Below are positions 10,983-40,251 of a stretch of 64,000 nucleotides of DNA, piece after piece. Source of the DNA: Candidatus Dormiibacterota bacterium (GTDB lineage Bacteria > Chloroflexota > Dormibacteria > Aeolococcales > Aeolococcaceae); the NCBI GenBank assembly GCA_041691155.1, contig JBEPVD010000011.1, forward strand, positions 636 through 64,635, given 5' to 3'. Below the pieces are notes generated by a model that did no database searches, was not told where the DNA came from, and saw nothing but the letters and a program-made list of their open reading frames with translations. Made by a program: the position numbers and the translations under genes. The stretch's first letter is position 1. Every line of letters starts with the position of its first letter.

Positions 10983-11066
10983 GGGCCTCCCTCGACGTCA
11001 TGTCGTGCCGATCGAGCATAGCGGTACCCGCTGACGCCGCAGAAGGCATACCATGCGAACCCCAGA

Positions 11067-11080: not shown

Positions 11081-11124
11081 CCTGGGGCTCGACGCCCGAA
11101 GACCTCAGTGGGAGCTAGGAACCT

Positions 11125-14220: not shown

Positions 14221-16703
<2,483 letters not shown>

Positions 16704-22790: not shown

Positions 22791-23116
22791 GCCGGCGATC
22801 CCCCGTTGCCGTCGCGGTAGTGCGCGCCGACGAGCTCCTCTTCCATCGCCTGCCACTCGCGGATCTGCTCCATCTCATCGGTGTACGCGGGGCCCATCTC
22901 CTCGAGGATCCGCAAGGTCTCGGCAGCTTCGGTCTCACTGACGCGGGACAGTGCAAATCCGACGTGGACGAGCACGTATTCGCCGGGCTCGGTCTTGTCC
23001 TCGCCGACCAGCAGTGAGGTGTTGATCCGGCGCTGCACACCGCCGAGCTCAACCTTGCCGTACATACGCTCCTCGTCGACGTACTCGACGAGTCGGGCGG
23101 GAATCGCTAGGCACAT
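22787..23116 (-). CDS. hypC: Hydrogenase chaperone HypC
   Basis: MCLAIP start; VLVHVGFA. Confidence 0.95.
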   Translation of the reverse strand: MCLAIPARLVEYVDEERMYGKVELGGVQRRINTSLLVGEDKTEPGEYVLVHVGFALSRVSETEAAETLRILEEMGPAYTDEMEQIREWQAMEEELVGAHYRDGNGGSPA

Positions 23117-23784
23117 GCTGGCTCTCCTTCAAGCTCTCGTTGCACCAACTCAGTAAGGAGGTGATAGAGCGTCATCTGCACCTCTTGAATACGATGGACA
23201 CTGCTGGATCGGACGATGAAGCACTGGTCCGCGCTCTGCTCGCGAGCGAGACGGCCACCGTCGTAGCCACAGATCGCGATCGTGTAGAGACCACGACTGC
23301 GCGCCTCGCTCAATCCGCGCACGAGATTCTCCGAGTTGCCGCTCGCGGACACGGCGACGGCGACGTCCTGCGGCCGCGCCAGCGCAATCAACTGCCTGAC
23401 GAAAATATCATTGAATCCGACGTCATTGCCAACTCCTGTGACCACCGCGACGTCATTGGTGAGGCAGAGCGCAGGAATGGGCCGCACGCCGGGCGCCGGC
23501 CACAACATCTCGGTCACCATGTCGGCCGCGGACGTGGCGCTGCCGCCGTTTCCCAGTCCCAGCAGGCGTCCGCCGCGACGGAAACGATCTGCCATCTCCA
23601 TCGCCGCGACCACGACGCGGTCACCGAACTCGTCGAGCAACTCGAGGCGCAGCCGGTTGCTTTCGGCCGATTTCTCGAGTGGGGCGCGGGCAAGTTCGGC
23701 GATCACGTCCTCGCCGACCGCCGGTTGCGCGCTCAGCATGGGATAGAGCAGCTGCGAGAAGGGATCGCGCCCGGTGTCAGTCAC
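23107..23784 (-). CDS. SIS-domain protein (GmhA-like)
   Basis: GNGGSATSA, GNDVGF, SASGNSEN, HRIQE. Confidence 0.85.
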   Translation of the reverse strand: MTDTGRDPFSQLLYPMLSAQPAVGEDVIAELARAPLEKSAESNRLRLELLDEFGDRVVVAAMEMADRFRRGGRLLGLGNGGSATSAADMVTEMLWPAPGVRPIPALCLTNDVAVVTGVGNDVGFNDIFVRQLIALARPQDVAVAVSASGNSENLVRGLSEARSRGLYTIAICGYDGGRLAREQSADQCFIVRSSSVHRIQEVQMTLYHLLTELVQRELEGEPACA

Positions 23785-24008
23785 GCCCCGACCTCAGCGA
23801 GTGACCCACGCTGGAGCGCCACACCGCCGTGGCAGAGCAGCACTTCCCCAATCGTCACGGCGTCGAGCAACTCGATGCTGACCTCGGCGGGCGACCCGTC
23901 GATGGTTCCGCGTGCGCTTCCGGCAGATGCATCGACCTGCGTGACGGTGAACTCGAGCAGCTGATCCGAACACGTGATGCAGACCTCGTCGTGGCACTCA
24001 ACGCTCAT
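23781..24008 (-). CDS. HypC/HupF-like protein with internal CxxC
   Basis: CHDEVCITCSD...IGEVLLCHGGVAL. Confidence 0.75.
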   Translation of the reverse strand: MSVECHDEVCITCSDQLLEFTVTQVDASAGSARGTIDGSPAEVSIELLDAVTIGEVLLCHGGVALQRGSLAEVGA

Positions 24009-24640
24009 GAGCCGTCTCCAATGCCGCGGTGGTTGAGCACGATATGCACGAGCTCCCAGAGCATGTGGTAGGTCGCGAGATGGAGCTCATGTGCGGTGCC
24101 GCGGTCGGTGCCCGGCACATGAAACGCGAACTCGGCGAGGTCGGTGCTGTGCTCGAAGTCACCGGAGGTCAGCGACACGGTCAGCATGCCGCCGTCGGCG
24201 GCCGCCCGCATCGCCCGTGCGATCGATGGATGCAGCGGGGCATGTGCGAAACCGAGTGCGATATCGCCGCGTCTCCCGAGGACTCGCAGTTGATGGGCAT
24301 AGACGTCTGCTGCTTCCTCGCTTTGCAGCATTGCGGTGACGGTGCCGATATCGTTGGTCAGGGCCAGTGACGGGAGTGCCCGGCATCCAGGCAGTACCGG
24401 ATGCACATATTCCACGGCGTTGTGCTGCGCGTCGGTCGCGTGCGGACCCGACCCGAACACAAGCAGCGTGGCGCCCATGAAAAAGCGATCCGCCATCGCG
24501 GCCGCGCACGCGGCGATGGCCCGCGCGTTCTGTGCGAAGAATGCCTCGCCTGCCTGGTTGGAGCGCTCGATGCGCTGAGCCACGAAACCGCGGTCGGCGC
24601 CAGGCAGGGCATCGCGCGCTGGCTCCATGGCAACAATCAT
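24005..24640 (-). CDS. Second SIS-domain protein (divergent GmhA-like)
   Basis: TDAQHNAVEYVHP, ALTND, YHMLWELVH; lacks the S-x-SG-x-S loop. Confidence 0.8.
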   Translation of the reverse strand: MIVAMEPARDALPGADRGFVAQRIERSNQAGEAFFAQNARAIAACAAAMADRFFMGATLLVFGSGPHATDAQHNAVEYVHPVLPGCRALPSLALTNDIGTVTAMLQSEEAADVYAHQLRVLGRRGDIALGFAHAPLHPSIARAMRAAADGGMLTVSLTSGDFEHSTDLAEFAFHVPGTDRGTAHELHLATYHMLWELVHIVLNHRGIGDGS

Positions 24641-24641
24641 G

Positions 24642-27008
24642 TCAGGCAGCCTCCTCCGCTCGGGACGCGGCAACCAGCGCCTGTCCGAGGCTGAGCCCAC
24701 CGTCGTTGGCGGGCACCTCGTGATTTGAGAAAACCTGCAGATCCCGCTCGCCGAGCAACTGTTCGACACGTGCCAGCAGCAGGGCATTTTGAAAGACGCC
24801 ACCGCTCAGCGCAACACGAGCCACAGCAAGCTCCGCCGCGAGTCGCATGCACGCCGCGGCGATCGCATGCGCCACGCTCTCGTGAAACAGTGCGGCCAGC
24901 TCGCCGGCCGGTCTGCCTCGGTCGCGCTCCTGCGCGAGCCGCGCGACCAGACCAACCGTGTCGAGCACGAGCGGCGATCCCTGGAGACCGACATCCAGTC
25001 GCTGCCCAGTCGCGCCGTCGCCACCGGTTGCCGCCAGCGCCTCGAGACGCATCGCAGCCTCGGCCTCGAAGCTCGACACCTGCGCGATCCCCAGAAGGCT
25101 TGCGACCGCGTCGAAAAGACGGCCGGCGCTGGTGCTGACGGGCGCTGCCGACGGGGAGAGCGCGAGCCTCGAGACCAGCCGCCACGCACGGTCAGTCGGC
25201 GCGTCAACGGAGTCGCGGATCCAGCGAGGCGGGGTGTCGCGCAGCGCGCCGGAGGCGGCCAGGTACGCGATCGCCATGCGCCACCCCTCACGAGCGCACG
25301 CGTCCCCTCCGGGCTGGCGAACGGCCGCGATGTGACCGACTCGTCGGTACGAGCGCTCGTCGCAGAGCAGAAATTCGCCGCCCCAGATGGACTGATCGGG
25401 TCCGATGCCGACACCGTCGAATGCCACGCCCAGCACGCTCCCGCGAAGGTCGTGCTCGGCCAGCACGCTCGCGATGTGCGCGTGATGGTGTTGGACGCGC
25501 ACCGGTCGCGCACCGCCGTCCCAGTACGCCTCGGCCAAACGTGTCGACGCGTAGTCCGGATGCAGGTCAGCAGCCACGACATCGGGGTCCGCGCGGAACA
25601 GGTGCAGGTAGGTGGCGAGCGCCTCGCCGTGATGGGCGAGCGTCTGCGGGCTGTCCAGGTCGCCGACGTGCGGGCCGGTGAACGCGTTGCCATCTTTGAT
25701 GATGCAGAAGGTGTTCTTGAGGTGTGCACCGAGGGCGAGCACGGTGCTCTTGCCCACCGGAACGCGTACCGGCAACGGAGAAAACCCACGGGCGCGCCGG
25801 ATCATGCGCTGGGTGCCGCCCACCACGCGCAGCACCGAGTCGTCGTAGCGCGCGTGGATGTCGCGGTCGTGCAGCAGGAACTTGTCAGCAATCTGACCGA
25901 GACGCGCGACCGCCTCGTCGTTGTCGCGAGCAATGGGCTCCTCGCTCCGGTTGCCGCTCGTCATCACCAAGGGTGCACCGACCGCGCGCAACAGGAGGTG
26001 GTGCATCGGCGTGTATGGGAGCATCACGCCGAGTTCGTGCAGTCCAGGCGCAACCGAATCCGCGATAGCGCTCTCCACCTGGTCCGCCCGGAGCCGCAAG
26101 AGCACGATCGGTCGCGTCGAGCCCTCGAGCAGTGCCGCCTCCTCGCCCGACAGGTGGCAGAGGGCGCGCACGTCGTCCAGGTTCGGGAACATGACTGCGA
26201 ACGGCTTGGCGGGGCGGCACTTCCGCGCACGCAAACGCAATACCGTCGCTTCGTCTTCGGCGCTGCATGAGAGCTGGAATCCCCCCAAGCCTTTGAGCGC
26301 GATCACTTCGCCGCGCGCGAGCGCTGCGGCCGTGCCGGCGATCGGCTCGTCAGCGAGAGCCGTGCCCCGTGCGTCGGCAAGCCAGAGGCGCGGCCCGCAG
26401 TCCGGGCAGGCGTTCGGCTGCGCATGAAACCTGCGATCGGCAGGGTCGTCGTATTCCCGCCGGCAGGCCGCACACATCGTGAAGTGCCGCATGGTGGTGA
26501 ACCGCCGGTCGTAGGGGACGTCCTCGATGATCGTGAACCGCGGTCCGCAGTCGGTGCAGTTCGTGAACGGATAGCCGAAGCGGCGATTCTCCGGCGACAT
26601 GATGTCGGCGAGGCAGTCGGGGCACGTTGCCGCATCGGGCGCGATCGGTTGGTACTCGCCGTCGACGGCGCGACTCTCCACGATCCGAAATTGGGTATCG
26701 CCCACCGAATCCATCGCCCGCAACTCCACCGTGTCGATGCGTGCCAGCCGAGGCGCCTCGTCACGCAGCGCGCGGGCAAAGACATCGACCACGACGGCCG
26801 CACCCTCGACCTCGATGATCACGGCCCCGGACGTGTTGCATACGAAGCCGCGCAGCCCGAGCCGGTGTGCCAGGTTCCACACGAAGGGTCGGAAACCAAC
26901 GCCTTGCACGACACCGCGCACGGTGAATCGCCACCGGGACACGCCACCGCTTTCGGGCGGTGTCGTGACCGGCAGTGTGACCGCCAGCGGCGAGGTGGCA
27001 AGGCTCAC
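24642..27008 (-). CDS. hypF: Carbamoyltransferase HypF
   Basis: VQGVGFRP, CPDC/CTDC/CAAC/CPDC zinc fingers, QHHHAH, DGGLSLGQ. Confidence 0.96.
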   Translation of the reverse strand: MSLATSPLAVTLPVTTPPESGGVSRWRFTVRGVVQGVGFRPFVWNLAHRLGLRGFVCNTSGAVIIEVEGAAVVVDVFARALRDEAPRLARIDTVELRAMDSVGDTQFRIVESRAVDGEYQPIAPDAATCPDCLADIMSPENRRFGYPFTNCTDCGPRFTIIEDVPYDRRFTTMRHFTMCAACRREYDDPADRRFHAQPNACPDCGPRLWLADARGTALADEPIAGTAAALARGEVIALKGLGGFQLSCSAEDEATVLRLRARKCRPAKPFAVMFPNLDDVRALCHLSGEEAALLEGSTRPIVLLRLRADQVESAIADSVAPGLHELGVMLPYTPMHHLLLRAVGAPLVMTSGNRSEEPIARDNDEAVARLGQIADKFLLHDRDIHARYDDSVLRVVGGTQRMIRRARGFSPLPVRVPVGKSTVLALGAHLKNTFCIIKDGNAFTGPHVGDLDSPQTLAHHGEALATYLHLFRADPDVVAADLHPDYASTRLAEAYWDGGARPVRVQHHHAHIASVLAEHDLRGSVLGVAFDGVGIGPDQSIWGGEFLLCDERSYRRVGHIAAVRQPGGDACAREGWRMAIAYLAASGALRDTPPRWIRDSVDAPTDRAWRLVSRLALSPSAAPVSTSAGRLFDAVASLLGIAQVSSFEAEAAMRLEALAATGGDGATGQRLDVGLQGSPLVLDTVGLVARLAQERDRGRPAGELAALFHESVAHAIAAACMRLAAELAVARVALSGGVFQNALLLARVEQLLGERDLQVFSNHEVPANDGGLSLGQALVAASRAEEAA

Positions 27009-27012
27009 GACA

Positions 27013-27207
27013 TCACGCGGCCCGCAACTGGTCCGCCGTGTTGCTGAATCGCTCTTCGAGGAATCCCGTCGCCAGACTGACCACCATCTGCACGTCCTCG
27101 CGGGCGGCAAATTTCTTGGCAGTGTCGACGAGCTCGTCGAAGCGTTCCTTGCCGGCGCGCGTGCCCAGCACGTAGCCGATACTGAAGATCACGAGTTTCT
27201 CAAGCAT
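27013..27207 (-). CDS. Small protein with N-terminal hydrophobic segment
   Basis: 64 aa MLEKLVIFSIGYVLGTRAGKERFDEL; in operon; purine-rich RBS. Confidence 0.7.
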   Translation of the reverse strand: MLEKLVIFSIGYVLGTRAGKERFDELVDTAKKFAAREDVQMVVSLATGFLEERFSNTADQLRAA

Positions 27208-27234
27208 GTGCTTCCACTCCAGATGCCGTTCTTG

Positions 27235-27747
27235 CTATGTCTGCAGTTCAGCCACGATGTGGACGGTCAAATCCACATCCGGTTCCACCTTCAGGATGAT
27301 CAGACGCGGCGGATCGATCCCGAAGTCCTTGACGTTGATGACCTGCTGACCGTCGATGGTCATCGTCGTTCCGTCGACGTGCAGCGTGAGGTCTCCACTG
27401 ATCTCCCGCGTCTGGCCGTGCATGGTCAGCTGGGCCACCGCACGATAGTGACCCTGGCTTTCCAACGCTTCGCCTTTGGTCACGCGCGCGTTGATGGTCG
27501 GATAGCGCCCCACGTCGAAACGCCGCCGCATCTCGCGGTCCTGGATACCGTTCCCCGACTTGATGGCGTCCACCGGCAGCGCGAGATCCGCGCTGTACGG
27601 TTGGTCGAGGCGCGGCTGCCCCTGGTCGTCGACCTCGCACTCGATCACGCCGGTGAGCGCGTTGGCATCGACGTGCGACGGGTGAAGGTTGATTCTGAGC
27701 CCGACCTTCACCGACGACTTGTTGGTGTTGACGCGGAACTTTGGCAC
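27235..27747 (-). CDS. YceI-family polyisoprenoid/quinone-binding protein, no signal peptide
   Basis: SGNGIQDREMR, RYPTI, LTMHGQTREI, DFGI motifs. Confidence 0.82.
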   Translation of the reverse strand: MPKFRVNTNKSSVKVGLRINLHPSHVDANALTGVIECEVDDQGQPRLDQPYSADLALPVDAIKSGNGIQDREMRRRFDVGRYPTINARVTKGEALESQGHYRAVAQLTMHGQTREISGDLTLHVDGTTMTIDGQQVINVKDFGIDPPRLIILKVEPDVDLTVHIVAELQT

Positions 27748-27766
27748 GGTTGGCTATCGAGCTCCC

Positions 27767-27898
27767 TTACATCGCGCGGATCTTGAGATACCGCTGAATA
27801 TCCTTCGAGTTGAGCACTGCGCCGATGATCGCCCCGAGTACGAGCCACTGAACCAGCGTGCGCAGTCCGCCGTTCGATTTGCCGAGCATCAGAGACAT
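27767..27898 (-). CDS. 43-aa single-TM small protein (DUF6893-like), absent from the ORF track
   Basis: MSLMLGKSNGGLRTLVQWLVLGAIIGAVLNSKDIQRYLKIRAM; RBS AAGGAGG; fills the operon gap. Confidence 0.75.
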   Translation of the reverse strand: MSLMLGKSNGGLRTLVQWLVLGAIIGAVLNSKDIQRYLKIRAM

Positions 27899-28261
27899 CT
27901 AGGCTCCTCCTTGTGCCTGTAGCGGTGTGACCGACGCCGATGGGGCGTCGTGATGGCTGGAATGCGCGTGTGCGTGCGGCGGTTCGACCACTTCGGCACC
28001 GGGACGTCGAAGCACCATCGGGGGATCGCCGCCGAGCTCGACTTCATCGATCAGAACGGTGACGCCGGGAACCACGACGCACTGCAGCCTGGCCCCTTCG
28101 CACTGTGTTCCCTCGGCGAGCAACTGGAAACTGAACTCCAGGCTGTCCGAGGCGATGCGTTGCTCCTGGCCGACGCGCACCACGATGCGGGTGACCGCAC
28201 GCTCTCCTGCCATATCGGCGACGGTGCTGAAGATCCCTTGCGCAAGGCCCATCTCGTGCAT
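27899..28261 (-). CDS. hypA: HypA-like nickel chaperone lacking the zinc finger
   Basis: MHE N-terminus, VRVG, SLEFSF, EGARL; no CxxC pairs; His-rich tail HAHAHSSHH. Confidence 0.8.
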   Translation of the reverse strand: MHEMGLAQGIFSTVADMAGERAVTRIVVRVGQEQRIASDSLEFSFQLLAEGTQCEGARLQCVVVPGVTVLIDEVELGGDPPMVLRRPGAEVVEPPHAHAHSSHHDAPSASVTPLQAQGGA

Positions 28262-28779
28262 CAGCCGGCACTCGCGATCGGCACGAGCCGACCAAGCAGT
28301 TGCTCGACGACGGCGATGGCTTCGGGCACTGCCTGCGCAACCGCTTCGCTGAGGCCCATCTGCCCTTCGTTCTCCGGACCGAACGTCAGGGGCTCGCATC
28401 CGACCACCGTGACGTTGGTGGGCGTGCCGCCAAGTGTGCGCACCAGCGCGAACACCGAGTCCGGGGTCATGGCGTGCCCTTGAAACGAACCGTCGGCGTG
28501 GTCGGGTGCGATAGCCGCTCCATCGGCATCGAGATCCGGCTCGAGGACGTAGACCGTGCCGGGCGCTTCGCCACGCTGCATCGCATCGACGAGGATCGTC
28601 GCGTCCGGGTTGTCGAGGAGTGCGAACGCAAGGTCGAAGCCGCGAATGCCGAAGTCGATCACCCGGACTCCGTCAGGCTGCGGTCGACGCGACAGCTGTT
28701 GCGCGACCTCGACGCCAAACGCGTCGTCGCCGAGAAAGATGTTGCCGATCCCGGCCACAAGCACATTGCGCTCAGCCAT
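28261..28779 (-). CDS. Hydrogenase maturation protease
   Basis: AGIGNIFLGDDAFG, DFGIRG, ILVDA, HAMTP, VGCEP. Confidence 0.92.
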   Translation of the reverse strand: MAERNVLVAGIGNIFLGDDAFGVEVAQQLSRRPQPDGVRVIDFGIRGFDLAFALLDNPDATILVDAMQRGEAPGTVYVLEPDLDADGAAIAPDHADGSFQGHAMTPDSVFALVRTLGGTPTNVTVVGCEPLTFGPENEGQMGLSEAVAQAVPEAIAVVEQLLGRLVPIASAG

Positions 28780-29104
28780 CGGTCTCGCCTCCGACGCCGT
28801 TCACTGGTTCGATGTCCTCGAGGCTGAAGAAGAACCGGTGGCCGGGCTGGCGCAACGCCCCGAGATCCTTCCCAGGGTCGTCGTCGACCAGGACTGCGAC
28901 GTGAATGACGTCCTCGTAGTCACGCTCAATCGACTCCACGATAGCGGTGCGCCCGTTGAGGACCATGTCCATGATGTCGGCGCGCCGCCGGGGCCGCATG
29001 CGAACACGATCACCGCGATGCAACTCGCCATCGCCCCAGCGCACCGACTCGGTGGCGGTATCGGCGCCTGCCGGGTCCCAGAGCCCGAGATCGAACTCCT
29101 TCAT
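28772..29104 (-). CDS. Group 1h hydrogenase accessory protein (SH3-like)
   Basis: GDRVRMRPRRRADIMD...DDPGKDL...FFFSLEDIEP; translationally coupled in the operon. Confidence 0.75.
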   Translation of the reverse strand: MKEFDLGLWDPAGADTATESVRWGDGELHRGDRVRMRPRRRADIMDMVLNGRTAIVESIERDYEDVIHVAVLVDDDPGKDLGALRQPGHRFFFSLEDIEPVNGVGGETDG

Positions 29105-30165
29105 CGCTGCCCCCGTCCAACCGGACGGATCTCTCGGATGGTTCCGTGCATCCGCATCAGGTCCTCGCCGGTGAGCGCTTCGGTGCGATCCAGCAGGGCG
29201 CGAGCGCGACCATCGGCGGCGCGCATCTCTGCCTTTTCATCGTCGGTGAGCGCAAGAATCCGCAGGCTGAGAATCTCATCGATCTCGGTCGCATCAAAGA
29301 GGTCCCCGGACGACTCCGGCGCCACCTGCGGGTGGTCCTCGAGAATGATCGGCGAGGCCAGGATCGTGTCCGAATCGCCAGGCTCACCGACGAGCACCGG
29401 CCAGAGGCCTGTGTTGCGACATCCGGCCGCAGCGTCGACCGCGTCCGCAGGCGGATCGGCAAGGGAGAGCCACTCGCCACGCTCGGTGACGAGGATCGCG
29501 TGGGTGGAAATCAGCGAGCTGCACAGCGCGCGCTCTCGGTCGCGGTCCCCGGTGAGCGGGAACGCACCGGTGTTGCGCACGATCACTCGCAAGCGCACGA
29601 GCGCAGGCCCGACGCGCTCAGCGGCGATGGCAACCTCAGCTCCAAGTTGCACGCGCTCGCGGATCAGCGCGCCTGCGATGCACCCGTCCTCGTCGATGAG
29701 CGGCTCGATGGCCGAGGTCTCAGCGTGAAGGCTCTCCACCACGACTTCGCGCGCGAGGAGCGTCGCGACATCGTGGGCGCCGCAGTCGATGCTCAGCTCG
29801 GTTGCCTCCTCCCACCCGCGATGCGTCACCCCTGCCACACGCAACTCCGGGACGTCCTCCAGACGGCCGATCGCATCGGCGTCGAGCACGTGGCTCGACG
29901 GATCGAGTTTCATCACAGTTCTCGTCACCAGTTGCAGAAACCTGACCTGCACGCTCACCTGCGCCGTACCCGGGTCACGAAGCAGGCACTCGGTCTGAGC
30001 CGCCCATGGGTCGGTGCCACCTGACGCCTCGCTCCATGCGCGTGGATGCACCCCGCCAAACGTCCACCGGACTTGATTCTTGACCGACGACGGGCGGTAC
30101 GGGTAGAGGATGTAGCCCTCGTACAGCGTTGCCGCGACGATTCGGTCGAGCATGCTGGTCGTCAT
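29101..30165 (-). CDS. Group 1h hydrogenase accessory protein
   Basis: LYEGYILYPYR, RWTFGG, SPIILEDHPQVAPES, DATEIDEIL. Confidence 0.8.
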   Translation of the reverse strand: MTTSMLDRIVAATLYEGYILYPYRPSSVKNQVRWTFGGVHPRAWSEASGGTDPWAAQTECLLRDPGTAQVSVQVRFLQLVTRTVMKLDPSSHVLDADAIGRLEDVPELRVAGVTHRGWEEATELSIDCGAHDVATLLAREVVVESLHAETSAIEPLIDEDGCIAGALIRERVQLGAEVAIAAERVGPALVRLRVIVRNTGAFPLTGDRDRERALCSSLISTHAILVTERGEWLSLADPPADAVDAAAGCRNTGLWPVLVGEPGDSDTILASPIILEDHPQVAPESSGDLFDATEIDEILSLRILALTDDEKAEMRAADGRARALLDRTEALTGEDLMRMHGTIREIRPVGRGQR

Positions 30166-30824
30166 GCCGGCGGCCCGCTGATCGTCGGTCGATCCTCTGC
30201 GCTCGCGAGCAGGCGAGCCAGCGCCTCATCCCATCCTGGAACACCGGAATGAGCCTTGTAGCGATTGAGCCGGTCGACGGTGTCGCGACGCAGGCAGAGC
30301 CAGGCGCTGTCGGGGTCGTGTTCATCCATCAGCCCCCGCCAGGTGGAGACTGGGAGCCGGAACGCTGCCTCCTTGGACCACGGGATCGGCGCGACCTGCA
30401 GCTCCTCGTCCTCGTCGCGCCAGAAGATCGTGCCGCTGAACTGGAACATCAGTGGCACCTCGCCGTCCTGCAGCGCGAAGAAGTACTTGCCGGCACTGAT
30501 GGTGAGGTCGTGCGTGCACGGCACCGGGACGATCACGTCCGTCGACCCTGTGAAGCCTGAGACGTCGACGCTCGCGTGCGTCCAGAGCATCGTCTTCAGC
30601 GTGGTCCCCCAGCGCCCCGGCGTGCCGAACAGATCGAGCAACGCCTCCTGCTCGCCTGGCGCGTAGGTGCGGCGCGTGGCCTGCACCATGATCTGGCATC
30701 GGAGCGAGATCGAATCGACACGGCGACCTTCCCGCTCACGGATGGCGATGCGGAAGTTGAGAATCGGGATGAGCGTGTCGGGCTCAGCCCCGGCGGACAC
30801 CACTTCGAGATCCAGGTCAGGCAC
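30162..30824 (-). CDS. DUF6084-like hydrogenase accessory protein
   Basis: LRCQI, DLFGTPGRWG, VPCTHD, KYFFAL, FSGTIF, PWSKEA. Confidence 0.8.
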   Translation of the reverse strand: MPDLDLEVVSAGAEPDTLIPILNFRIAIREREGRRVDSISLRCQIMVQATRRTYAPGEQEALLDLFGTPGRWGTTLKTMLWTHASVDVSGFTGSTDVIVPVPCTHDLTISAGKYFFALQDGEVPLMFQFSGTIFWRDEDEELQVAPIPWSKEAAFRLPVSTWRGLMDEHDPDSAWLCLRRDTVDRLNRYKAHSGVPGWDEALARLLASAEDRPTISGPPA

Positions 30825-31446
30825 GGACCGCACCCTTCTCGGTTGCCACGCTGCGCATCTCGGTGAAGAAATCCGCGATGCGGTCCCAGACCTCCTGGCC
30901 ACCACTCAAACCGCGCCAGCTGATGCGGATCAGGCCCACCAACTCGAAGCACTTGTCAATCGGGGCGATGTAATGGTCGCGGGCCCCGCTCACGCGATTG
31001 ACGAGCAACGCCTCGACATCGGGCACCAGACCGGTGAGGATCGGGTTCTCCGCGATGATCTCGCCCCACCCGTCAAGCGTGAGCATCGATTCCGTCGCCC
31101 CGGCGGGACTGGGGTAATACGCGCGCACCGATCCTTCCGGTGATGTCGTGTGCAGGAAGGCCATGTTCACCGGAATGGACAGCCCTTCCCATTGCGCATC
31201 GCTGAATGCGAAACCGGACAGGTACCAGAGGCGGCGCGGGACGCGCCGGTAGCGCTTCTCCGCCTCAGGAGGAAACAGGATCGCGCACGGCGTGCACGTG
31301 CAGTGAATCTGCCGCGCCCCGGGCTCGAAAACGTGCTCGTGATGCGGGTGCGGAGACAGCTCCGCACTGCACAGCTCGCACCGCTCCGCGGGCGCCCGTT
31401 CGCGAATCAGCCCGCGAAGCCCGGAGAGCCGTGCGGCAGTGGTCAT
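30817..31446 (-). CDS. DUF5947-like hydrogenase accessory protein
   Basis: ERCELC, CTCTPCAILF, YPSPAGATES, PIDKCFELVG, WRGLSGG. Confidence 0.8.
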   Translation of the reverse strand: MTTAARLSGLRGLIRERAPAERCELCSAELSPHPHHEHVFEPGARQIHCTCTPCAILFPPEAEKRYRRVPRRLWYLSGFAFSDAQWEGLSIPVNMAFLHTTSPEGSVRAYYPSPAGATESMLTLDGWGEIIAENPILTGLVPDVEALLVNRVSGARDHYIAPIDKCFELVGLIRISWRGLSGGQEVWDRIADFFTEMRSVATEKGAVRA

Positions 31447-32375
31447 GACACCGGCGCCAAAACGGCGACACGGAGTACGCCGCTCTCCTCGAGCAGCGGC
31501 ATCGGCTCGATGCGGTGATCGGTCCCGATGCCGGCACCCGCACGACGGATGTCGTACCGGGTTGCGCACGTGCACACGAGAGCAGCGCCGTCCAGGGTGG
31601 CGCCTTCCATATCACCGGCACACGCCGGGCATGAGGCGACATACGCGTAAAACACATCCCCGGATCGGGCGATGAGCACCCCGCCTCCGTCAACAGTCGT
31701 GCGCAGGACCGTGCCGTTGCGAACGTCCGCCGACCGCGCGGCGAGCGTGACCCATTCGCCTGACGGTGCTGAGACCGGCAGTGGCATCACTTTCGGCGAC
31801 GGTCTCGCGACCATCGGGAGTGCCATCAGCCCCGGCATGCTCGGCGGCCCCGTCGGCGCCGCGTCAACCGGGTCGGCCACCTCGATGGCTACGACGTCGG
31901 GTGCCGCTTCGTAGATCGCCTTCTCCACCGCCAGTTTGAGGGTGACCATCGACGAAGGGCAGCTCTTGCAGTGACCTTCGAGGCGAATGCGCACGACGTC
32001 TCCCAGCACAGCGACGAGCTCCACCCCGCCGCCATGTGAGCGCATGTACGGACGCACCGACTCGAGCGCGCCCTCGACACGGGTGCGGAGATCGATCGGA
32101 TGCAATCCGTGCAGGAGCAACACGCCGCGGATGAGGTCGTCATCAGCCATGGCTCGCAACAAGCGATCCGCGGCCGCATCGCCGCGTGGGCCGAGTGCGT
32201 CGAGCATCCGTGAGAGGGCCTCACCATGCAGGTCGAGGACAGTCGAGAGCAAGTCTTCGACCTTGGCCCGTAACGCAAGGTCGGGGAGCTCTTGCAGCTC
32301 CCCGACCAGGGCGTCAATACGGGCTAGCCGTTTCTGGAGCTCGCGCTCCTCAACGATGCGGGCTCGCGCTGCCAT
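31443..32375 (-). CDS. NifU-domain Fe-S protein with C-terminal Rieske-like domain (HhyE-like)
   Basis: LHGLHP, VRPYMRSHGGGVEL, GHCKSCPSS; C-terminal CPAC and CTC. Confidence 0.82.
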   Translation of the reverse strand: MAARARIVEERELQKRLARIDALVGELQELPDLALRAKVEDLLSTVLDLHGEALSRMLDALGPRGDAAADRLLRAMADDDLIRGVLLLHGLHPIDLRTRVEGALESVRPYMRSHGGGVELVAVLGDVVRIRLEGHCKSCPSSMVTLKLAVEKAIYEAAPDVVAIEVADPVDAAPTGPPSMPGLMALPMVARPSPKVMPLPVSAPSGEWVTLAARSADVRNGTVLRTTVDGGGVLIARSGDVFYAYVASCPACAGDMEGATLDGAALVCTCATRYDIRRAGAGIGTDHRIEPMPLLEESGVLRVAVLAPVS

Positions 32376-34163
32376 TCATGGTTGCGTGCCGAAGTTCGGC
32401 GAGTGCCGAGTCTCCAGCACTTTGCCGTTGCCGAGATACATGTGCACGCCGCATGGCAGACACGGATCAAAGCTGCGCACCGCGCGCATGATGTCGATGC
32501 CCTTGAAGTTGTCAGGCCCGTTCTCTTCAAAGATCGGCGTGTTCTGCACCGAGTCTTCGTACGGTCCCGGCGTTCCGTACATGTCGCGAGGCGTGGCGTT
32601 CCACGGCGTCGGCGGGTACGGATGGTAGTTGGCGATCTTCCCGTCACGAATCACGACGTGGTGGGAGAGCACACCGCGAACCGCTTCATGGAAGCCACAG
32701 CCGATCGCCTCGTCAGGCACGGTGAATGGCGTGAAGGTGTCGGTGCGTCCAGCGTTGAGCTCAGCGAAGGCCTTCTCGATGAAGTGGAGCGCAGCCGCTG
32801 CCGCGTACGCCTGGAAGTACGTCCGGGCCCGGTCGCGCTCGATCGCGTTGCTCCACTTCGGCACGTGCCACTCGAACTCAACCTCGGGCTTCGAGGCGGT
32901 CTTGGGAAGGTAGATCTTGGTGCTGTGACCGGTCGCCTTCACGTAGCCGATGTCGACGACGCCGGCGAGTGAGGTCGCGAGCAGCCGGGCGAAGGCGCCG
33001 CCACCGGTATCCATCGCCAGGTGCTGGCCCTCGTGGAGGTAGCGCGGGCACATCACCCAGCTGTAGTTCTTGTCGAAATCGCGCTTCCCCGGCTTGGGGA
33101 TGGTTGTCTGGTTCCACGGATGCCGCTTGTCGATCGGGAATCCGAGCGGATCCTTCTCGACGAACACTTCACCGTCGTCGACCCAGTCCTCGTAGAACGA
33201 GTGTCCGAGCAGGATTCGGATGTTGCGGTTGATCTCGACCAGGTCAGTGGTGACCAGCTTGCCGTCCACAACGACACCGGGGGTCACGAACATCGACCGT
33301 CCCCAGTTGGTCATGTGACGGTAGGTGTAGTCGCACTCGTCGGGATCGTTGAACGAGCCCCAGCAGACCGTGTCCATACGGCGACGACCGACTTCCTCGT
33401 ACCCCGGAAGAGCCTCGTAGAAGAAGTCGAAGATGTCGTCGTGCAGTGGCACGACCTTCTTCATGAACTCAACGTAGCGCATCAGGCGAACGAGGTAGTC
33501 CGAGAAGAGCTGGACGGTCGGCACGGTGCCGACGCCGCCGGGATACAACGTCGATGGATGGACGTGGCGTCCCTCCATCAGGCAGAACATCTCGCGCGTG
33601 TAGCGGCTGACGTGCAAGGTCTCGCGGTAGAACTCGCCCGTGAACGGGTTGAGCGCCCGCATGATGTCGGCGATCGTCCGATAGCCATGGTCGGCCGCAT
33701 GCGGCGAGGGAGTGTTCTCCGCTTTCGCGAGGACACTCGGGTTGGTCTCTTTCACCATCTGCTCGCAGAAGTCGACCATGAGCAGGTTGTCCTGGAAGAT
33801 GTTGTGGTCGAACATGTACTCGGCGGCCTCGCCGAGGTTGACGATCCACTCCGCCATTGCCGGCGGCCGGATGCCGAACGCCATGTTCTGCGCGTAGGTT
33901 GCGCAGGTCGCGTGGTTGTCACCGCAAATGCCGCAGATGCGGCTGGTGATGAAGTGCGCGTCGCGAGGGTCCTTGCCCTTCATGAAGATGCTGTAGCCAC
34001 GGAAGATCGACGAGGTGCTCCGGCAGTCCGCGACGACGCGGTTCGCGAAGTCGATCTTCGTGAAGATGCCGAGGCTGCCGACGATCCTGGTGATGGGATC
34101 CCAGGAGACGTCAACCAGGGTCGGGTCCTTGGTCCGGGTGGCGTCTTTCTCAACCACAGTCAT
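32376..34163 (-). CDS. hhyL: Group 1h [NiFe]-hydrogenase large subunit
   Basis: L1 ITSRICGICGDNH; L2 SFDPCLPCGVH; WDPITRIVG. Confidence 0.95.
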   Translation of the reverse strand: MTVVEKDATRTKDPTLVDVSWDPITRIVGSLGIFTKIDFANRVVADCRSTSSIFRGYSIFMKGKDPRDAHFITSRICGICGDNHATCATYAQNMAFGIRPPAMAEWIVNLGEAAEYMFDHNIFQDNLLMVDFCEQMVKETNPSVLAKAENTPSPHAADHGYRTIADIMRALNPFTGEFYRETLHVSRYTREMFCLMEGRHVHPSTLYPGGVGTVPTVQLFSDYLVRLMRYVEFMKKVVPLHDDIFDFFYEALPGYEEVGRRRMDTVCWGSFNDPDECDYTYRHMTNWGRSMFVTPGVVVDGKLVTTDLVEINRNIRILLGHSFYEDWVDDGEVFVEKDPLGFPIDKRHPWNQTTIPKPGKRDFDKNYSWVMCPRYLHEGQHLAMDTGGGAFARLLATSLAGVVDIGYVKATGHSTKIYLPKTASKPEVEFEWHVPKWSNAIERDRARTYFQAYAAAAALHFIEKAFAELNAGRTDTFTPFTVPDEAIGCGFHEAVRGVLSHHVVIRDGKIANYHPYPPTPWNATPRDMYGTPGPYEDSVQNTPIFEENGPDNFKGIDIMRAVRSFDPCLPCGVHMYLGNGKVLETRHSPNFGTQP

Positions 34164-34177
34164 GGGTCTGTCTCTCC

Positions 34178-35242
34178 TCAGTACGTGGTCGGCCGGTAGC
34201 CGGTGGTCAGCTCTGGCCGGGTGTGACGCCACTTCGGCTCTTTGTTGACGGTCGTGTTGGTGACCTTGCGCAGCGCACGGATGGCAGTGCCGTAGACACC
34301 GATCACGCCGGTCGAAAGATGCGCGCCGGGCGGCTCGTCCATGAACGGCATGAACTTGTCCGGGAAGCCGGGCATCGTGCAGCCGATGCAGATGCCGCCG
34401 ACGTTTGGACAGCCGCCGATGCCGGCCATCCATCCGCGCTTGGGCACGTTGCAGTTGACGACCGGTCCCCAGCAGCCGAGCTTCACGAGGCAGCGAGGGG
34501 AGTTGTAGTCCGCGGCGAAATCGCCCTGCTCGTAGGACGCGGCACGGTCACACCCGTCGTGGACCGTGTCCCCGAAGAGCCACGTGGGACGCAACTGGTC
34601 ATCCAGCGGGATCACCGGCGCGAGTCCGGCGACCATGTAGAGCAGATAGAGCACCGTCTCCATGAAGTTGTCGGGTTGCACAGGGCAGCCCGGTACGTTG
34701 ACGATCGGAAGGCCCGCCTTCGACTTCCAGTCCCAGCCGAGGTAGTCGGCCAGGCCCATAGCGCCGGTGGGGTTCCCCTGCATCGCATGGATGCCGCCGT
34801 ACGTCGCGCAAGTGCCGCAGGCGACGACAGCGAGCGCCTTGGGCGCGAGGCGGTCGATCCATTCGCAGGTGGTGATCGGTTGCCCGGTCGCCGCGTCCGT
34901 GCCGACGGCGGCCCAGTAACCTTCCTTCTTGATGGTTTCGTTCGGAATCGAGCCTTCGATGACGAGCACGAAGGGATCCAGCTCGCCGTTCGCGGCCGCG
35001 TGCCAGGACTTGATGAACTCCTCGCCGTTCTCATACGCGAGGACGGGGTTGTACAGATGCACTTTGGGGAGGCCCGGTATCGCACCGAGCAGCACATCCT
35101 CGATGCTGGGCTGCGTGGCTGCGGTGATCGACACCGAGTCACCGTCGCAGCCGAGTCCGGCGGTCACCCACACGATGTGGACATCCGGGACGGGCGACTC
35201 CCGCTGGGTTTTCCGCCCGTAGGGCACCGTGTCTGTGGCCAT
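34178..35242 (-). CDS. hhyS: Group 1h [NiFe]-hydrogenase small subunit
   Basis: GLGCDGDS (Cys/Asp proximal ligands), GCPVQP, HDGCDR, CIGCTMPGFPD; no Tat signal. Confidence 0.95.
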   Translation of the reverse strand: MATDTVPYGRKTQRESPVPDVHIVWVTAGLGCDGDSVSITAATQPSIEDVLLGAIPGLPKVHLYNPVLAYENGEEFIKSWHAAANGELDPFVLVIEGSIPNETIKKEGYWAAVGTDAATGQPITTCEWIDRLAPKALAVVACGTCATYGGIHAMQGNPTGAMGLADYLGWDWKSKAGLPIVNVPGCPVQPDNFMETVLYLLYMVAGLAPVIPLDDQLRPTWLFGDTVHDGCDRAASYEQGDFAADYNSPRCLVKLGCWGPVVNCNVPKRGWMAGIGGCPNVGGICIGCTMPGFPDKFMPFMDEPPGAHLSTGVIGVYGTAIRALRKVTNTTVNKEPKWRHTRPELTTGYRPTTY

Positions 35243-35364
35243 CCAACCTCCTCCTTGATGAGCTTGGCTGCGGCGACGAAACGACGGATCAAGTCGCGCG
35301 AAGTCCGCCTCGTGACGGACTGTGCCCACCCGCGATACCCCCGTCAATCCGTGTATCTCGCACC

Positions 35365-35383
35365 TATCCGCGCAGCGCGGATA
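35365..35383. promoter_or_regulatory. Palindrome TATCCGCGC-A-GCGCGGATA upstream of hhyS
   Basis: Perfect 9-bp inverted repeat with a 1-nt spacer between the padR stop and hhyS. Confidence 0.5.
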
Positions 35384-35384
35384 T

Positions 35385-35843
35385 TTACAGCGAGGTGGTG
35401 TTGCGGGTGCTCAACGCAAGATGGTCGTGCTGCTGCGCGGCCTTCGACTCCTGCTTGCCACTCGGCGATGCGGAGTGCACGCTCGAGGACCCCGGGGTTC
35501 GCCTGCGCATCTTCAGGAACTCCTGCGCGACATGCAGGAGTTGCTCGACCGGAGCGACATAGGCGTCGACCATGTCCATGCCCGATTCGCTCAATTCGTA
35601 GCGACGGCGACTGCGACCGCCCGTCGTCCGCTCCCAGGTTGAACGCAAGAGTCCCTCGCTCTCCATGGTGTTCAAAGCCCGGTAGACCGTTCCGAGATCG
35701 CACTCCACGCCGACGCCAAGCAGCCAGTGATGCAGCTCGTAGCCGTAGACCGTGTCTCCGCCGACGAGATGCGCGAGGACGCACGGGCGCAGCATGCCAA
35801 CTGACATTGCCCCTGGTCCAACCGGCCGGCCGTCCCCGCTCAA
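35385..35843 (-). CDS. PadR-family transcriptional regulator
   Basis: LRPCVL, YGYEL, GTVYRALNTMESEGLL, RRRYELSESG; true start may be downstream (MSVG or MLRP). Confidence 0.85.
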   Translation of the reverse strand: MSGDGRPVGPGAMSVGMLRPCVLAHLVGGDTVYGYELHHWLLGVGVECDLGTVYRALNTMESEGLLRSTWERTTGGRSRRRYELSESGMDMVDAYVAPVEQLLHVAQEFLKMRRRTPGSSSVHSASPSGKQESKAAQQHDHLALSTRNTTSL

Positions 35844-35905
35844 TGCCTTACCTCGAATCCGCCAACTGGTGTGCTCACTGTACGGCGGCGAACCAACCTT
35901 TTACC

Positions 35906-35922
35906 CTAGGGTCGGACCCTAG
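35906..35922. promoter_or_regulatory. Palindrome CTAGGGTC-G-GACCCTAG, candidate LuxR-type operator
   Basis: Perfect 8-bp inverted repeat at the end of the LuxR gene, upstream of padR. Confidence 0.55.
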
Positions 35923-38768
35923 TCTTTTGCGACCAGGACACCCTTGGTTGCGCTGCTGCTCGTATGAGCCTGTCGCACCGGAGCAATTGGCCCAAACGTT
36001 GGTACCAGTTCTTGACGCGAACGGATGCCGAGCTTTCCGTACACATTCGCCAGGTGGTACTCCACCGTCTTGATGCTGACCACCAGTTCGTCCGCGACTT
36101 GACGATTGGTGCGACCCGTCGCCACGAGGCGGGCGACCGAGACTTCCTGCGGCGTCAGCCGCCAGCGTGCCGATTGACCGCCGTCGGCGCTGAGCGCGAG
36201 ACCGCACTGCGCGAGCAGCCGGGCGCAGTCGGCGATGAAGGGCCGCGCCTCCAGGTCGACGAAGCGCTCGTGGGCAGCCTCCAGCTGCCACATCGCGGAA
36301 CGGTTGTGGCCCTCACGAAGGAGGTGCCGACCATACTCGAGCTCGGTCAATCCTCGCTCGAACGGCAGCTGAATGTCGTCAAGGATGGCGAGGCTGGAGA
36401 CGAATGACACCTCGGCGTCGTCAGTCCGACCGAGTGCCGCGTCGATGGCGCCACGCACCCGTTCTGCGGCCGCCACCGATTGCGCTCGGTTCCGCTCACG
36501 TGCAAGCCGCGTGAACTGGCCCAGCACGGTTTCGGCATCGCGAAGCCTGCTCGTGCCGACGAGAGCGGATGCGTACAGGATCGGCCAGTCCAGGATCCCG
36601 GGCTCGCGGATGCCGTCGAGGTCGGCGAGCGGCAGCAATGGCTCCAGCGCATGGATCACCTGTTCGTGATCGCCGCGCGCGCGCGCCACCAGCGCGGAAG
36701 CCATCGCAGCCTGGGCCACCCCGGCGAACTCCGCTCTGACGATCTCGGCGGCGCGGCGCGCCGCGGCCGCGTGTGCGCCGGCTGCGTCCCAGTCACCTCG
36801 GCCGGCGAGCGGTGCCGCCGCTGCGGCGTGCGCTCGGGCGAGCAGCCAGGTCTGGTCGGCATCCTCCGCGAGGGACGCGGCGAGTTGACCGTGCACCGAG
36901 GCGTCGTCCCATGCGCCCATGCGGTACTCCGCGATCGACAGCGCCGTGAGCGCCTCGACCGCGTGTCGCGCCGGGCCTCGACGCCGGTATTGATCGGCAA
37001 TCGGCGCGAGGTCGTCGCGCGCGCCGACCGGATCATCGGTCACACAGCGCACGTACCCACGGCCGATGAAGCCGTCGAGTGACTCCGACTCGTCGATCGA
37101 GCTCGCATCCCCGAGCGCGACAACCGCTGCCGCTGCTTCCGGCGCTCGCCCGGCGAAGAGCAGCCCGGTCGCAAGCACCGAGAGTGAGTCGGAAACTGGC
37201 GACGGCGGTCGCTTGGCGTCAAGCGAGCGTGTGGCCCATAACGCGGCGTCAGCGCCGTGGCCGCGGCCCATGTGGACGTGAGCAAGCTGCGCGGCGATCT
37301 CCTCCGCCAGCGGGTGGTCGCGGACGCGGTCGCAGGCTTCGTACGCGATGCTGAGCAACTCCTGCGCTCTGTCGTATCGGCCGGCAACCATTGCGAGACT
37401 ACCCAGCACGAAGCCGCGCCGAGCCGTCGGCGGCTGCAGCTCGATCTCGTCGACCAGCGCTGTCGCATCATCCACGGCACCGCCCAGGAGCATGTATTCC
37501 GCAGCCATGAGCAGCCGCAGGTCGCGCTCCGGGCTGTCCACTGTGAGGCGGCTGGCGGACAGCAGCGCGTCGGCGGCGGCGTCCCATCCCCCACGACGCG
37601 CGATCTGCATACCGAAGATCAGGAGGTCTGCCGCGAGTTGCGGATCCGCGCCGTGCGCGGCGGCCACTCGATGGTGGAGTGCTGCGGCCTCGTCGCTGAC
37701 CATCCCGGCGGCGCGCTCGTGAAGTTCAGCGCGGCGTGCAGGGCCGATCGTGTGGTACGCGGCCGCCTGGATCAGCGGGTGCGGGAATGCGATGTCGCGA
37801 TCCGCTGGAGCGCCTCGCTCCAGCAGGAGACGGGCGGCCATCGCGCGCTCCAGCGGCACCAGCGTCTCTGCGAGGTCGGCGAGCTTGCCGGCCTGTGCGA
37901 GCCTGCAGCTCAGGCCGAACACCGACGCCGCCGTGACCAGCCGTTGCGCCTCCGGTGAACAGGCCTCGAGGCGCGCCCGCACCAGCGCGCTGAAGTCGGC
38001 GGTGGACGGCAAAGGCAGATCCGACGGCTCGCGGAGGATCTCGGGAACGATCTCGTCGAAGATGGCCGTGGCATGCAGTGGGCTGCCACCTGTATGAGCC
38101 CGGATGCGGTCCGCCGCACGGGATGAGAGGTGGTCGATGCCCATCGTCGTGCCGAGATCACGTATCGACGCCGCGTCGAGCCCTCGAACACGGACCCATC
38201 CGCCATGACTGTGTTCGACCAGGCGGTGGAATCCGGCCAGGTGGCCGCGGGTCGAACCGCTGCGCGACACCATGAGGGTGAGGACACGATCCGCCTGGAG
38301 CCGCCGCAACGCGAATAGCAACGCTTGCAGGGACGGCCGGTCGGCCCATTGCGCATCGTCGATGAGCAGGAGAACGGGGCCGCCCGACGTCTGCATCGAC
38401 CCGAGCAACTCGAGCAGCGCCGCGCCCACCCATATCGGGTCGCGAGACTCGCCACCGGCGCTGCCGAGGCCTGCGAGAGCGGGAGCATCGGTCGAGGGCC
38501 CTGTGCGCACGAGTTGCTCCACGACGCCGAAGGTGAGGAGTTGCTCAGCTTCCTCACCACTGGCTTCCCAGACCTGAAAGCCGTGCAACTGGCTGACGAA
38601 ACGGTGCGCGAGCGCCGTCTTGCCGATTCCCGGTTCGCCGGTGAGCAGCACGATGCGCGGGTGACCCGCCCGGACCTGCTCCGCCTCGGCGAGTAGGCTG
38701 CTCAGTTCACTCCCCCGGCCGACGAAAGCCGTTGCGACTGGACCGGGCTCGCCGATTCGTGCCGTCAT
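35919..38768 (-). CDS. Large ATP-binding LuxR-family (LAL) regulator
   Basis: FVGRGSEL, GEPGIGKT, IDDAQWAD, helical repeats, C-terminal HTH LTPQE...TVEYHLANVYGKLG. Confidence 0.9.
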   Translation of the reverse strand: MTARIGEPGPVATAFVGRGSELSSLLAEAEQVRAGHPRIVLLTGEPGIGKTALAHRFVSQLHGFQVWEASGEEAEQLLTFGVVEQLVRTGPSTDAPALAGLGSAGGESRDPIWVGAALLELLGSMQTSGGPVLLLIDDAQWADRPSLQALLFALRRLQADRVLTLMVSRSGSTRGHLAGFHRLVEHSHGGWVRVRGLDAASIRDLGTTMGIDHLSSRAADRIRAHTGGSPLHATAIFDEIVPEILREPSDLPLPSTADFSALVRARLEACSPEAQRLVTAASVFGLSCRLAQAGKLADLAETLVPLERAMAARLLLERGAPADRDIAFPHPLIQAAAYHTIGPARRAELHERAAGMVSDEAAALHHRVAAAHGADPQLAADLLIFGMQIARRGGWDAAADALLSASRLTVDSPERDLRLLMAAEYMLLGGAVDDATALVDEIELQPPTARRGFVLGSLAMVAGRYDRAQELLSIAYEACDRVRDHPLAEEIAAQLAHVHMGRGHGADAALWATRSLDAKRPPSPVSDSLSVLATGLLFAGRAPEAAAAVVALGDASSIDESESLDGFIGRGYVRCVTDDPVGARDDLAPIADQYRRRGPARHAVEALTALSIAEYRMGAWDDASVHGQLAASLAEDADQTWLLARAHAAAAAPLAGRGDWDAAGAHAAAARRAAEIVRAEFAGVAQAAMASALVARARGDHEQVIHALEPLLPLADLDGIREPGILDWPILYASALVGTSRLRDAETVLGQFTRLARERNRAQSVAAAERVRGAIDAALGRTDDAEVSFVSSLAILDDIQLPFERGLTELEYGRHLLREGHNRSAMWQLEAAHERFVDLEARPFIADCARLLAQCGLALSADGGQSARWRLTPQEVSVARLVATGRTNRQVADELVVSIKTVEYHLANVYGKLGIRSRQELVPTFGPIAPVRQAHTSSSATKGVLVAKD

Positions 38769-38818
38769 CAGGGCATCAGATGCTACCCCCGTGGCGGCGA
38801 TGACGTTGCAGAGCCTGC

Positions 38819-40251
<1,433 letters not shown>

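Follow-up and report, generated by a model that had tools for sequence, protein, structure and literature searches.

A YceI-type lipocalin gene apparently inserted beside a widespread microprotein gene in a Dormibacteria group 1h [NiFe]-hydrogenase operon

Group 1h [NiFe]-hydrogenases account for much of the soil uptake of atmospheric H2. A single locus of this kind, running from a PadR-type regulator gene through hypE, lies on the minus strand of the stretch analysed here, a window of 64,000 nucleotides from a Candidatus Dormiibacterota bacterium (contig JBEPVD010000011.1, positions 636 to 64,635; 66% G+C). The source is a metagenome-assembled genome (MAG) of 3.07 Mb that is 89% complete, and its closest relatives are labelled Candidatus Dormibacteria or Dormibacterota. 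Between hypA and hypF, three short genes follow one another on the minus strand: one for a 43-amino-acid (aa) single-transmembrane microprotein that appears to be a divergent member of DUF6893 (27767-27898), one for a 170-aa leaderless protein of the YceI lipocalin family (27235-27747), and one for a 64-aa helical protein (27013-27207). Little sequence separates the genes, which have Shine-Dalgarno sites. A preliminary description of this region had placed three tightly packed genes here, and its coordinates and strand proved right, with orthologues in 28 related loci. It had also proposed that the three form one module, in which YceI shuttles quinone to the hydrogenase and the small proteins act as its docks. 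The region is read here as a composite rather than as one module: the DUF6893 microprotein would be an older part of group 1h clusters, and the YceI gene a later insertion in one Dormibacteria clade.

The operon is a group 1h (actinobacterial-type) [NiFe]-hydrogenase operon, because its large subunit is closest to HofG, the HhyE, DUF5947 and DUF6084 genes are present, and neither a cytochrome b nor a twin-arginine leader was found. HhyL (32376 to ~34163, minus strand, as are all genes of the operon) matches HofG (5AA5), the solved group 1h enzyme, at 1100 bits, the next-best structure scoring 158 bits, and it is 72-80% identical to HhyL of Cupriavidus necator, Methylocystis and actinobacteria. 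Inspection of the N-terminus of HhyS (34178 to ~35242, start inferred) found no twin-arginine leader, and a family search of the window proteins found no cytochrome b encoded in the hydrogenase operon, in agreement with the setting given in the preliminary description. The accessory genes typical of 1h clusters encode NifU-like HhyE (31443-32375), DUF5947 (30817-31575), DUF6084 (30162-30905) and an uncharacterised 354-aa protein (29101-30165), and C. necator pHG1 and the actinobacterial plasmids have them in the same order. A 2019 paper, in its available part, called it unresolved how Hhy attaches to the membrane, connects to the respiratory chain and passes electrons to quinone (PMC6883350), and a literature search found no later paper resolving 1h membrane attachment or quinone electron transfer.

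The central gene of the three encodes a protein that matches the Pfam YceI profile (PF04264) over positions 3-150 of 150 at 58.1 bits (cut-off 23.7, E 1.7e-15). An AlphaFold2 (AF2) model built from 118 sequences reached a predicted local distance difference test (pLDDT) score of 90.6 and a predicted template modelling (pTM) score of 0.84, and the predicted fold is an eight-stranded lipocalin-like barrel. Foldseek searches with the model gave probability 1.00 and a template modelling score of 0.81 to 5ixh, 1wub, 7bwl and 1y0g. The model superposes on BcnA (5IXH), TT1927b (1WUB), PA0423, HP1286 (3HPE) and Escherichia coli YceI (1Y0G) at 0.79-0.81, and it has the same eight-stranded barrel and helical insert as TT1927b, E. 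coli YceI, BcnA and HP1286 (0.77-0.81). The reading frame is open for just two codons upstream of the start and therefore leaves no room for a signal peptide; the N-terminus is polar, and the protein is predicted to be cytoplasmic. The earlier account of a 170-aa YceI-fold protein lacking a signal peptide was thus accurate. Unlike the characterised YceI lipocalins, to whose solved members it is just 13-19% identical in Foldseek alignments, the window protein belongs to a distinct leaderless subfamily of ~170 aa with an L-H-P-x-H motif, and its gene stands inside a hydrogenase maturation operon, not beside cytochrome b561. Mean column identity within the clade is 78% (alignment of 24 sequences), and His22, His25, Cys37 and His110 are invariant there.

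The ligand of this barrel can be approached through its relatives. Solved YceI proteins commonly contain octaprenyl compounds or other isoprenoids or ubiquinone-8 (UQ-8), and GNA1030 of Neisseria meningitidis co-purifies with UQ-8, as stated in the accessible portions of both sources (PMC9113575; PMC8981238). Hydrophobic and polar faces alternate along the predicted strands of the window protein, which is consistent with a hydrophobic barrel interior. From its modelled fold, the protein is expected to bind something hydrophobic, probably an isoprenoid, and the source genome encodes MenA (217 bits, cut-off 102). A complex prediction of the 43-aa and 64-aa proteins with YceI as partner scored 0.00 and gives no verdict either way. 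A second YceI-family gene lies elsewhere in the source genome (G000:C1:154395-154895, locus L001; G and L numbers denote genomes and loci), at 72.8 bits and within an open frame of 283 aa.

Both small open reading frames (ORFs) are real genes, because orthologues are kept in 28 related loci and change falls mostly at third codon positions: at positions 1, 2 and 3 the 43-aa ORF shows 0.21, 0.12 and 0.34 pairwise differences per site (23 sequences), and the 64-aa ORF 0.10, 0.06 and 0.35 (25 sequences). The ATG of the 43-aa ORF directly follows the hypA stop, behind the strong Shine-Dalgarno sequence AAGGAGGA. Its product has one transmembrane-grade segment (Kyte-Doolittle 19-residue maximum 1.76) and a C-terminal tail of charge +3, so that the single-transmembrane protein of the preliminary description was borne out. 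The window copy scores 23.6 bits against Pfam DUF6893 (PF21833; 22.3 bits in a six-frame search), just below the cut-off of 24.6. A hidden Markov model (HMM) made from the 43-aa orthologues matches a very short ORF that adjoins the protease gene in nearly all other clusters and thereby connects the window copy to Pfam-positive ones, the Pfam cut-off being passed by 8 of 10 homologues that hold this operon position elsewhere (33-51 bits). These homologues have one transmembrane helix and end in D-I-x-R-Y-L-[KR]-I-R-x-M, and the basic C-terminal tail is probably cytoplasmic. The uncharacterised Pfam family of ~32 residues has the transmembrane helix and terminal motif in common with the 43-aa protein, whereas the window copy has a longer N-terminus and follows hypA rather than the protease directly. 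Taken together, the profile, motif and hydropathy evidence identifies the 43-aa protein as a divergent DUF6893 member at the level of sequence.

DUF6893 accompanies group 1h hydrogenases with few exceptions. A regular expression for the C-terminal motif matched 25 of 13,054 ORFs in 30 loci, with zero internal matches, and all 25 ORFs belong to hhy clusters, where their neighbour is the protease gene, hypA or hypC. At least one motif-bearing copy occurs in 23 of 24 full 1h clusters from Chloroflexota, Actinomycetota and Pseudomonadota; the expression found none in the rearranged L068, beside the lone HhyL copies L040 and L041, or in two YceI loci without hydrogenase genes. In an evenly drawn sample of 301 genomes of the phylum, including the unpublished G173, G272 and G038, a 1h-type HhyL of at least 72% identity was present in 37, seven more genomes with HhyL matches at 36-45% only being left uncounted. 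DUF6893 was detected in 36 of the 301, of which 34 are among the HhyL-positive genomes, in just 2 of 264 HhyL-negative ones, and in none of 14 control genomes. The HhyL-positive genomes missed are G224 and G074, where the orthologue HMM finds divergent copies, and G119, where HhyL lies at a contig end. DUF6893 without HhyL was recorded in G128, by a match below threshold where a contig begins, and in G181, by a match interrupted by a stop. By these counts DUF6893 is a microprotein present in nearly every group 1h cluster, and it is unstudied; a literature search on the family name found no paper. The small ORF may already be visible in the operon figures that supplement PMC6883350. In C. necator H16 the DUF6893 ORF next to the protease gene lies at 19642-19740 of L059 (pHG1). 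Tandem or overlapping DUF6893 pairs occur in two hhy clusters, at 8344-8448 and 8472-8630 in L039 (G280) and at 9173-9298 and 9184-9486 in L045 (G041). G224 carries three 1h-type HhyL copies of 84% identity to the query, of which just the L042 copy lies in a full cluster; beside HhyL in L040 and L041 no other protein of the window cluster was matched, except a PadR-like protein in L041.

The 64-aa protein has a more restricted range. The preliminary description was right about the gene and its hydrophobic N-terminus, but the product is not predicted to span the membrane: the 19-residue Kyte-Doolittle maximum is just 1.02, with no clear transmembrane segment, and AF2 predicts two long helices (pLDDT 72.8). 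Mean column identity in the alignment is 88%, with a conserved N-terminal G-Y-V-L-G-x-R-A-G. No family reaches its cut-off. Phasin_2 is matched weakly, below cut-off, by 14 of 26 members (Pfam, E<=10), and the Atlas lead is 'YtxH' at 0.89, all Atlas matches being at or below 0.90; YtxH and phasin are thus leads only, which share with the 64-aa protein a short hydrophobic N-terminus, a Gly-rich motif and long amphipathic helices. The protein follows DUF6893 without any YceI gene in G224 (L042, E 1e-24) and, by weak matches, in G074 (L043) and G171 (L049), while in other clusters the gene after DUF6893 is hypA or hypF. It too may be an older part of the cluster, following DUF6893 in Dormibacteria and a few relatives. 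The occurrence of DUF6893 and of the 64-aa protein elsewhere without YceI indicates that YceI is a clade-specific insertion between two pre-existing neighbours. The proposal that the small proteins are docks for YceI finds no support in the same evidence, since one is near-universal in 1h clusters and the other occurs without YceI.

The YceI gene itself is narrowly distributed. A search of 5.8 billion proteins returned 171 homologues, the best 120 of which are at least 69% identical, and the named ones among these come from Dormibacteria-type or Chloroflexota MAGs. A scan of 185,579 species (one genome per species) with two subfamily-specific peptide patterns, which is blind to other YceI types, gave 36 loci: 33 of Dormibacteria type at 59-94% identity and 3 from distant Myxococcota. 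The latter (L036-L038) were set aside, being 27-35% identical, with hydrophobic leaders on L037 and L038. Of the 33, three (L004, L031 and L034) were deposited under the names Candidatus Saccharimonadales or Acidiferrales. Their sequence is of Dormibacteria type, with YceI of 71-84% identity, and L004 carries Dormibacteria-type hypF-hypE besides; the labels look wrong, or the bins mixed.

Among the 33 Dormibacteria-type loci, 28 have the exact order hypA, 43-aa gene, YceI, 64-aa gene, hypF, and 26 of these have HhyL on the same locus, the other two (L016 and L022) being cut by contig ends. In three loci (L004, L025 and L027), YceI adjoins hypF-hypCDE and the hhySL side is replaced by IclR and phosphotransferase system genes; YceI is intact there and the small ORFs are truncated, frameshifted or undetected. 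In the remaining two (L031 and L034), YceI lies between a DoxX-like gene and an Nramp transporter gene, with no hydrogenase genes (~9480-11870; DoxX-like neighbour borderline at 23.5 bits against a cut-off of 23.6, Nramp neighbour at 250 bits). The corresponding genomes G304, G306, G305, G303 and G296 yielded no [NiFe] large subunit at E<=1e-20 with a query that works elsewhere; completeness is 88% for G296, and no figure is available for the other four. With YceI intact in five genomes without HhyL and the small ORFs decayed in three of these, the three genes do not behave as the single module first envisaged.

Such a pattern raises the idea that YceI is a passenger gene, inserted into the operon by chance and kept for a function unrelated to hydrogen metabolism. 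The narrow taxonomic range fits this, as does the survival of YceI in L004, L025 and L027 despite loss of the flanking small ORFs and of hhySL. Against it, position and tight spacing have stayed stable though YceI has diverged to 59% identity (L035), which is hard to explain without useful co-expression, and a passenger is regarded as distinctly improbable. Because this tight synteny is stable over so diverged a clade, co-expression of YceI with the hyp and hhy genes is taken to be useful. In a maximum-likelihood tree of YceI, the hydrogenase-free copies nest inside hhy-linked lineages with moderate support (91/65 and 93/79), so their hydrogenase-free context is probably secondary.

Under the explanation preferred here, a leaderless YceI-type lipocalin was inserted between the DUF6893 and 64-aa genes in one Dormibacteria clade, in the maturation half of the operon and at the position held by hypB in Streptomycetaceae clusters. 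It would be a cytoplasmic barrel holding a hydrophobic isoprenoid, most plausibly menaquinone or menaquinol, and would act at the inner face of the membrane. Co-expressed with Hhy, it may help to supply or buffer quinone in this lineage, neither required for the hydrogenase nor exclusive to it and not the general electron link of group 1h. The protein is thus put forward, tentatively and at somewhat less than even likelihood, as a carrier of menaquinone or another isoprenoid that is particular to this lineage and works on the cytoplasmic side of the membrane, and whose ligand, location and contact with Hhy we infer.

Several observations weigh against this explanation. Within the phylum sample, a YceI orthologue at E<=1e-10 is present in 4 of 301 genomes and lies within the hhy cluster in just 2 of the 37 HhyL-positive ones (G000 and the unpublished G272). 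Narrow and wide YceI HMMs found no YceI in 18 other Chloroflexota hhy loci, and none in eight plasmid-borne 1h clusters (C. necator pHG1, Methylocystis, M. intracellulare, Kitasatospora, Embleya, two Streptomyces and Streptantibioticus). Relatives of the same family with HhyL 90-91% identical (G280) also lack it, the order there being protease, two DUF6893 copies and then hypF directly. These surveys cover Chloroflexota and plasmid-borne clusters, with Acidobacteriota, Verrucomicrobiota and chromosomal Actinomycetota clusters left out; related genomes in the counts are not independent, and MAG incompleteness limits the statements of absence. The gene is intact in the five genomes without detectable HhyL, in two of which (L031 and L034) it stands between the DoxX-like and Nramp genes. 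Where it does accompany the hydrogenase, it lies among the hyp genes and not beside hhySL, unlike hucM, which the portion of the Huc study available describes together with HucSL in the Huc complex (PMC10017518). Lastly, the characterised YceI proteins are secreted or periplasmic, whereas this one is predicted to be cytoplasmic and is only distantly similar to the solved members (13-19% identity).

The survey narrows what YceI can be. Since it is missing from most 1h clusters, those of close relatives included, Hhy evidently works without it, and the distribution in the genomes covered rules YceI out as the link to quinone for group 1h enzymes in general. The preliminary description had itself counted absence of YceI from related hhy clusters against its shuttle, and such absence was largely what was found (2/37, 0/18 and 0/8). 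Of the shuttle, the barrel for a hydrophobic ligand remains plausible; its role as a general shuttle for 1h enzymes does not, as YceI is mostly absent. What is removed as a general answer may be of interest as a clade-specific extra: the Dormibacteria gene offers a natural experiment in which a lipid or quinone carrier has apparently been added to a hydrogenase operon.

A barrel of this kind could also be a general membrane-protection or stress lipocalin, similar to BcnA and merely co-regulated with Hhy during starvation or persistence. BcnA is the closest solved fold to the window protein, and in the system proposed for BcnA and LcoA a quinone-loaded barrel would quench lipid peroxyl radicals; in the part of the source available, a BcnA-type YceI with a cytochrome b561 partner is proposed to detoxify such radicals through bound ubiquinone-8 (PMC9113575). 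The persistence of the orthologue in five genomes without detectable HhyL agrees with a protective role, as do the neighbours in two of them, Nramp and a membrane protein resembling DoxX (23.5 bits, cut-off 23.6), and the existence of a large leaderless ~170-aa YceI family away from hydrogenase genes, with 264 representative clusters at E<=1e-10. However, 28 of the 33 species loci hold YceI at one fixed position in the hhy cluster, no cytochrome b561 partner lies nearby in the window, and the tree nests two hydrogenase-free copies in hhy-linked lineages with moderate support, so that their context looks secondary. A stress lipocalin is therefore considered unlikely, while deserving serious attention.

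The carrier proposed here can be set beside the quinone-handling partners of other trace-gas enzymes. CoxG has an SRPBCC fold, and Pfam finds YceI alone in the window protein, with no other fold family and no homology to CoxG. The latter is a proposed quinone-extracting partner of the molybdenum (Mo)-CO dehydrogenase, itself a trace-gas enzyme (10.1101/2024.01.09.574806, as far as its available text goes). There is also a similarity in concept to HucM of the group 2a hydrogenase Huc from Mycobacterium smegmatis, described in the available text as a hydrophobic chamber that brings menaquinone to a soluble or peripheral hydrogenase without cytochrome b (PMC10017518). The two proteins are not homologous, HucM being a coiled-coil tube and scaffold and YceI a beta-barrel, and HucM is needed for the Huc oligomer whereas YceI is absent from most 1h clusters. 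Conservation with the enzyme across lineages, which defines the HucM and CoxG class, is not found for YceI (2 of 37 genomes and none of 26 further clusters).

More interesting than YceI as a lead is DUF6893, whose occurrence matches that of 1h hydrogenases nearly one to one in three phyla. It can be imagined as the membrane tether of these enzymes, its helix lying in the membrane and its invariant cytoplasmic tail, with Met as last residue, binding HhySL(E) or the maturation protease, to which a Dormibacteria clade would have added the 64-aa protein as adaptor and YceI as menaquinone extractor. If true, one Dormibacteria clade would have a three-part relay of quinone from membrane to enzyme. 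This reading, tether included, is a long shot.

The genes flanking YceI suggest a further role, in maturation. The product of hypA (27899-28264) matches Pfam HypA over profile positions 1-70 of 112 and TIGR00100 over positions 1-68 of 116 (41.8 bits, cut-off 88.1); this mini-HypA consists of the N-terminal MHE nickel domain and a tail rich in His, without the CxxC zinc domain. Mini-HypA genes that likewise lack the zinc domain occur in G288 and G196 (L044 ~8482-8750 and L057 ~15347-15610). Searches for HypB gave nothing above cut-off in G000, in the complete-chromosome relatives with the module G301 and G302, or in G224 and G074; the best TIGR00073 scores are 28-37 bits against a cut-off of 121 in the HypB-less Dormibacteria-type genomes, with no match in G224. 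Among the 37 HhyL-positive genomes of the phylum sample, HypB is present in 27 and was not found in 10.

From these data one could argue that YceI and the 64-aa protein form a maturation helper that replaces HypB in nickel delivery to HhyL, alongside the zinc-domain-less HypA. The YceI gene lies between hypA and hypF, the slot of hypB in Kitasatospora and Streptomyces clusters; HypB is missing from G000 and from both complete-chromosome carriers (28-29 bits against 121), whereas the module-less G280 has it at 253 bits; and His22, His25, Cys37 and His110 are invariant in the clade. However, HypB is also missing in the HhyL-positive genomes G224, G074, G288 and G196, which lack YceI, and because of this its loss correlates with the zinc-domain-less mini-HypA and not with YceI. 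The LHP-x-H motif is common to the wider leaderless YceI family, including members at non-hydrogenase loci, and YceI survives where HhyL is gone. To our knowledge, no YceI protein is a metallochaperone. A maturation role for YceI is accordingly judged very unlikely. The mini-HypA genomes without HypB nevertheless suggest a HypB-independent route of nickel insertion in some 1h systems.

The remaining features of the locus frame this region. A non-coding gap of ~320 nt (28780-29100) has the structural and accessory genes on one side and the protease and hyp genes on the other, and is the likeliest site of an internal promoter; a scan of 24500-36200 for promoter and terminator consensus sequences gave counts no higher than in shuffled sequence. 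Between the gap and hypA lies the gene for a HycI-type hydrogenase maturation protease (28261-28779, PF01750 at 7.2e-14). HypF carbamoyltransferase (24642-27008) has five HypF domains and an inferred GTG start a few bases past the stop of the 64-aa ORF. Two adjacent genes for SIS-domain proteins (23107-24802) stand between hypF and hypC, and hypC, hypD and hypE beyond them form the downstream end of the locus. The 1h clusters of C. necator, Methylocystis and Chloroflexota likewise have one or two SIS genes among their hyp genes. None of the YceI, 43-aa, 64-aa and 354-aa proteins has a family in NCBIfam.

Among the listed sequencing runs that contain this stretch, none is on record as RNA. One run (X9), guessed to be RNA and perhaps DNA, has short contigs over the YceI region, one of which crosses the junction of the YceI and 64-aa genes with a single differing letter; neither was used as evidence. 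At its upstream end the hydrogenase locus begins with the PadR regulator gene (35385-35843). Directly upstream of the PadR-hhySL operon, also on the minus strand, lies a gene for a STAND/AAA ATPase of 1011 aa that combines TPR repeats with a LuxR-type HTH domain (35919-38954), a possible candidate for a regulator.

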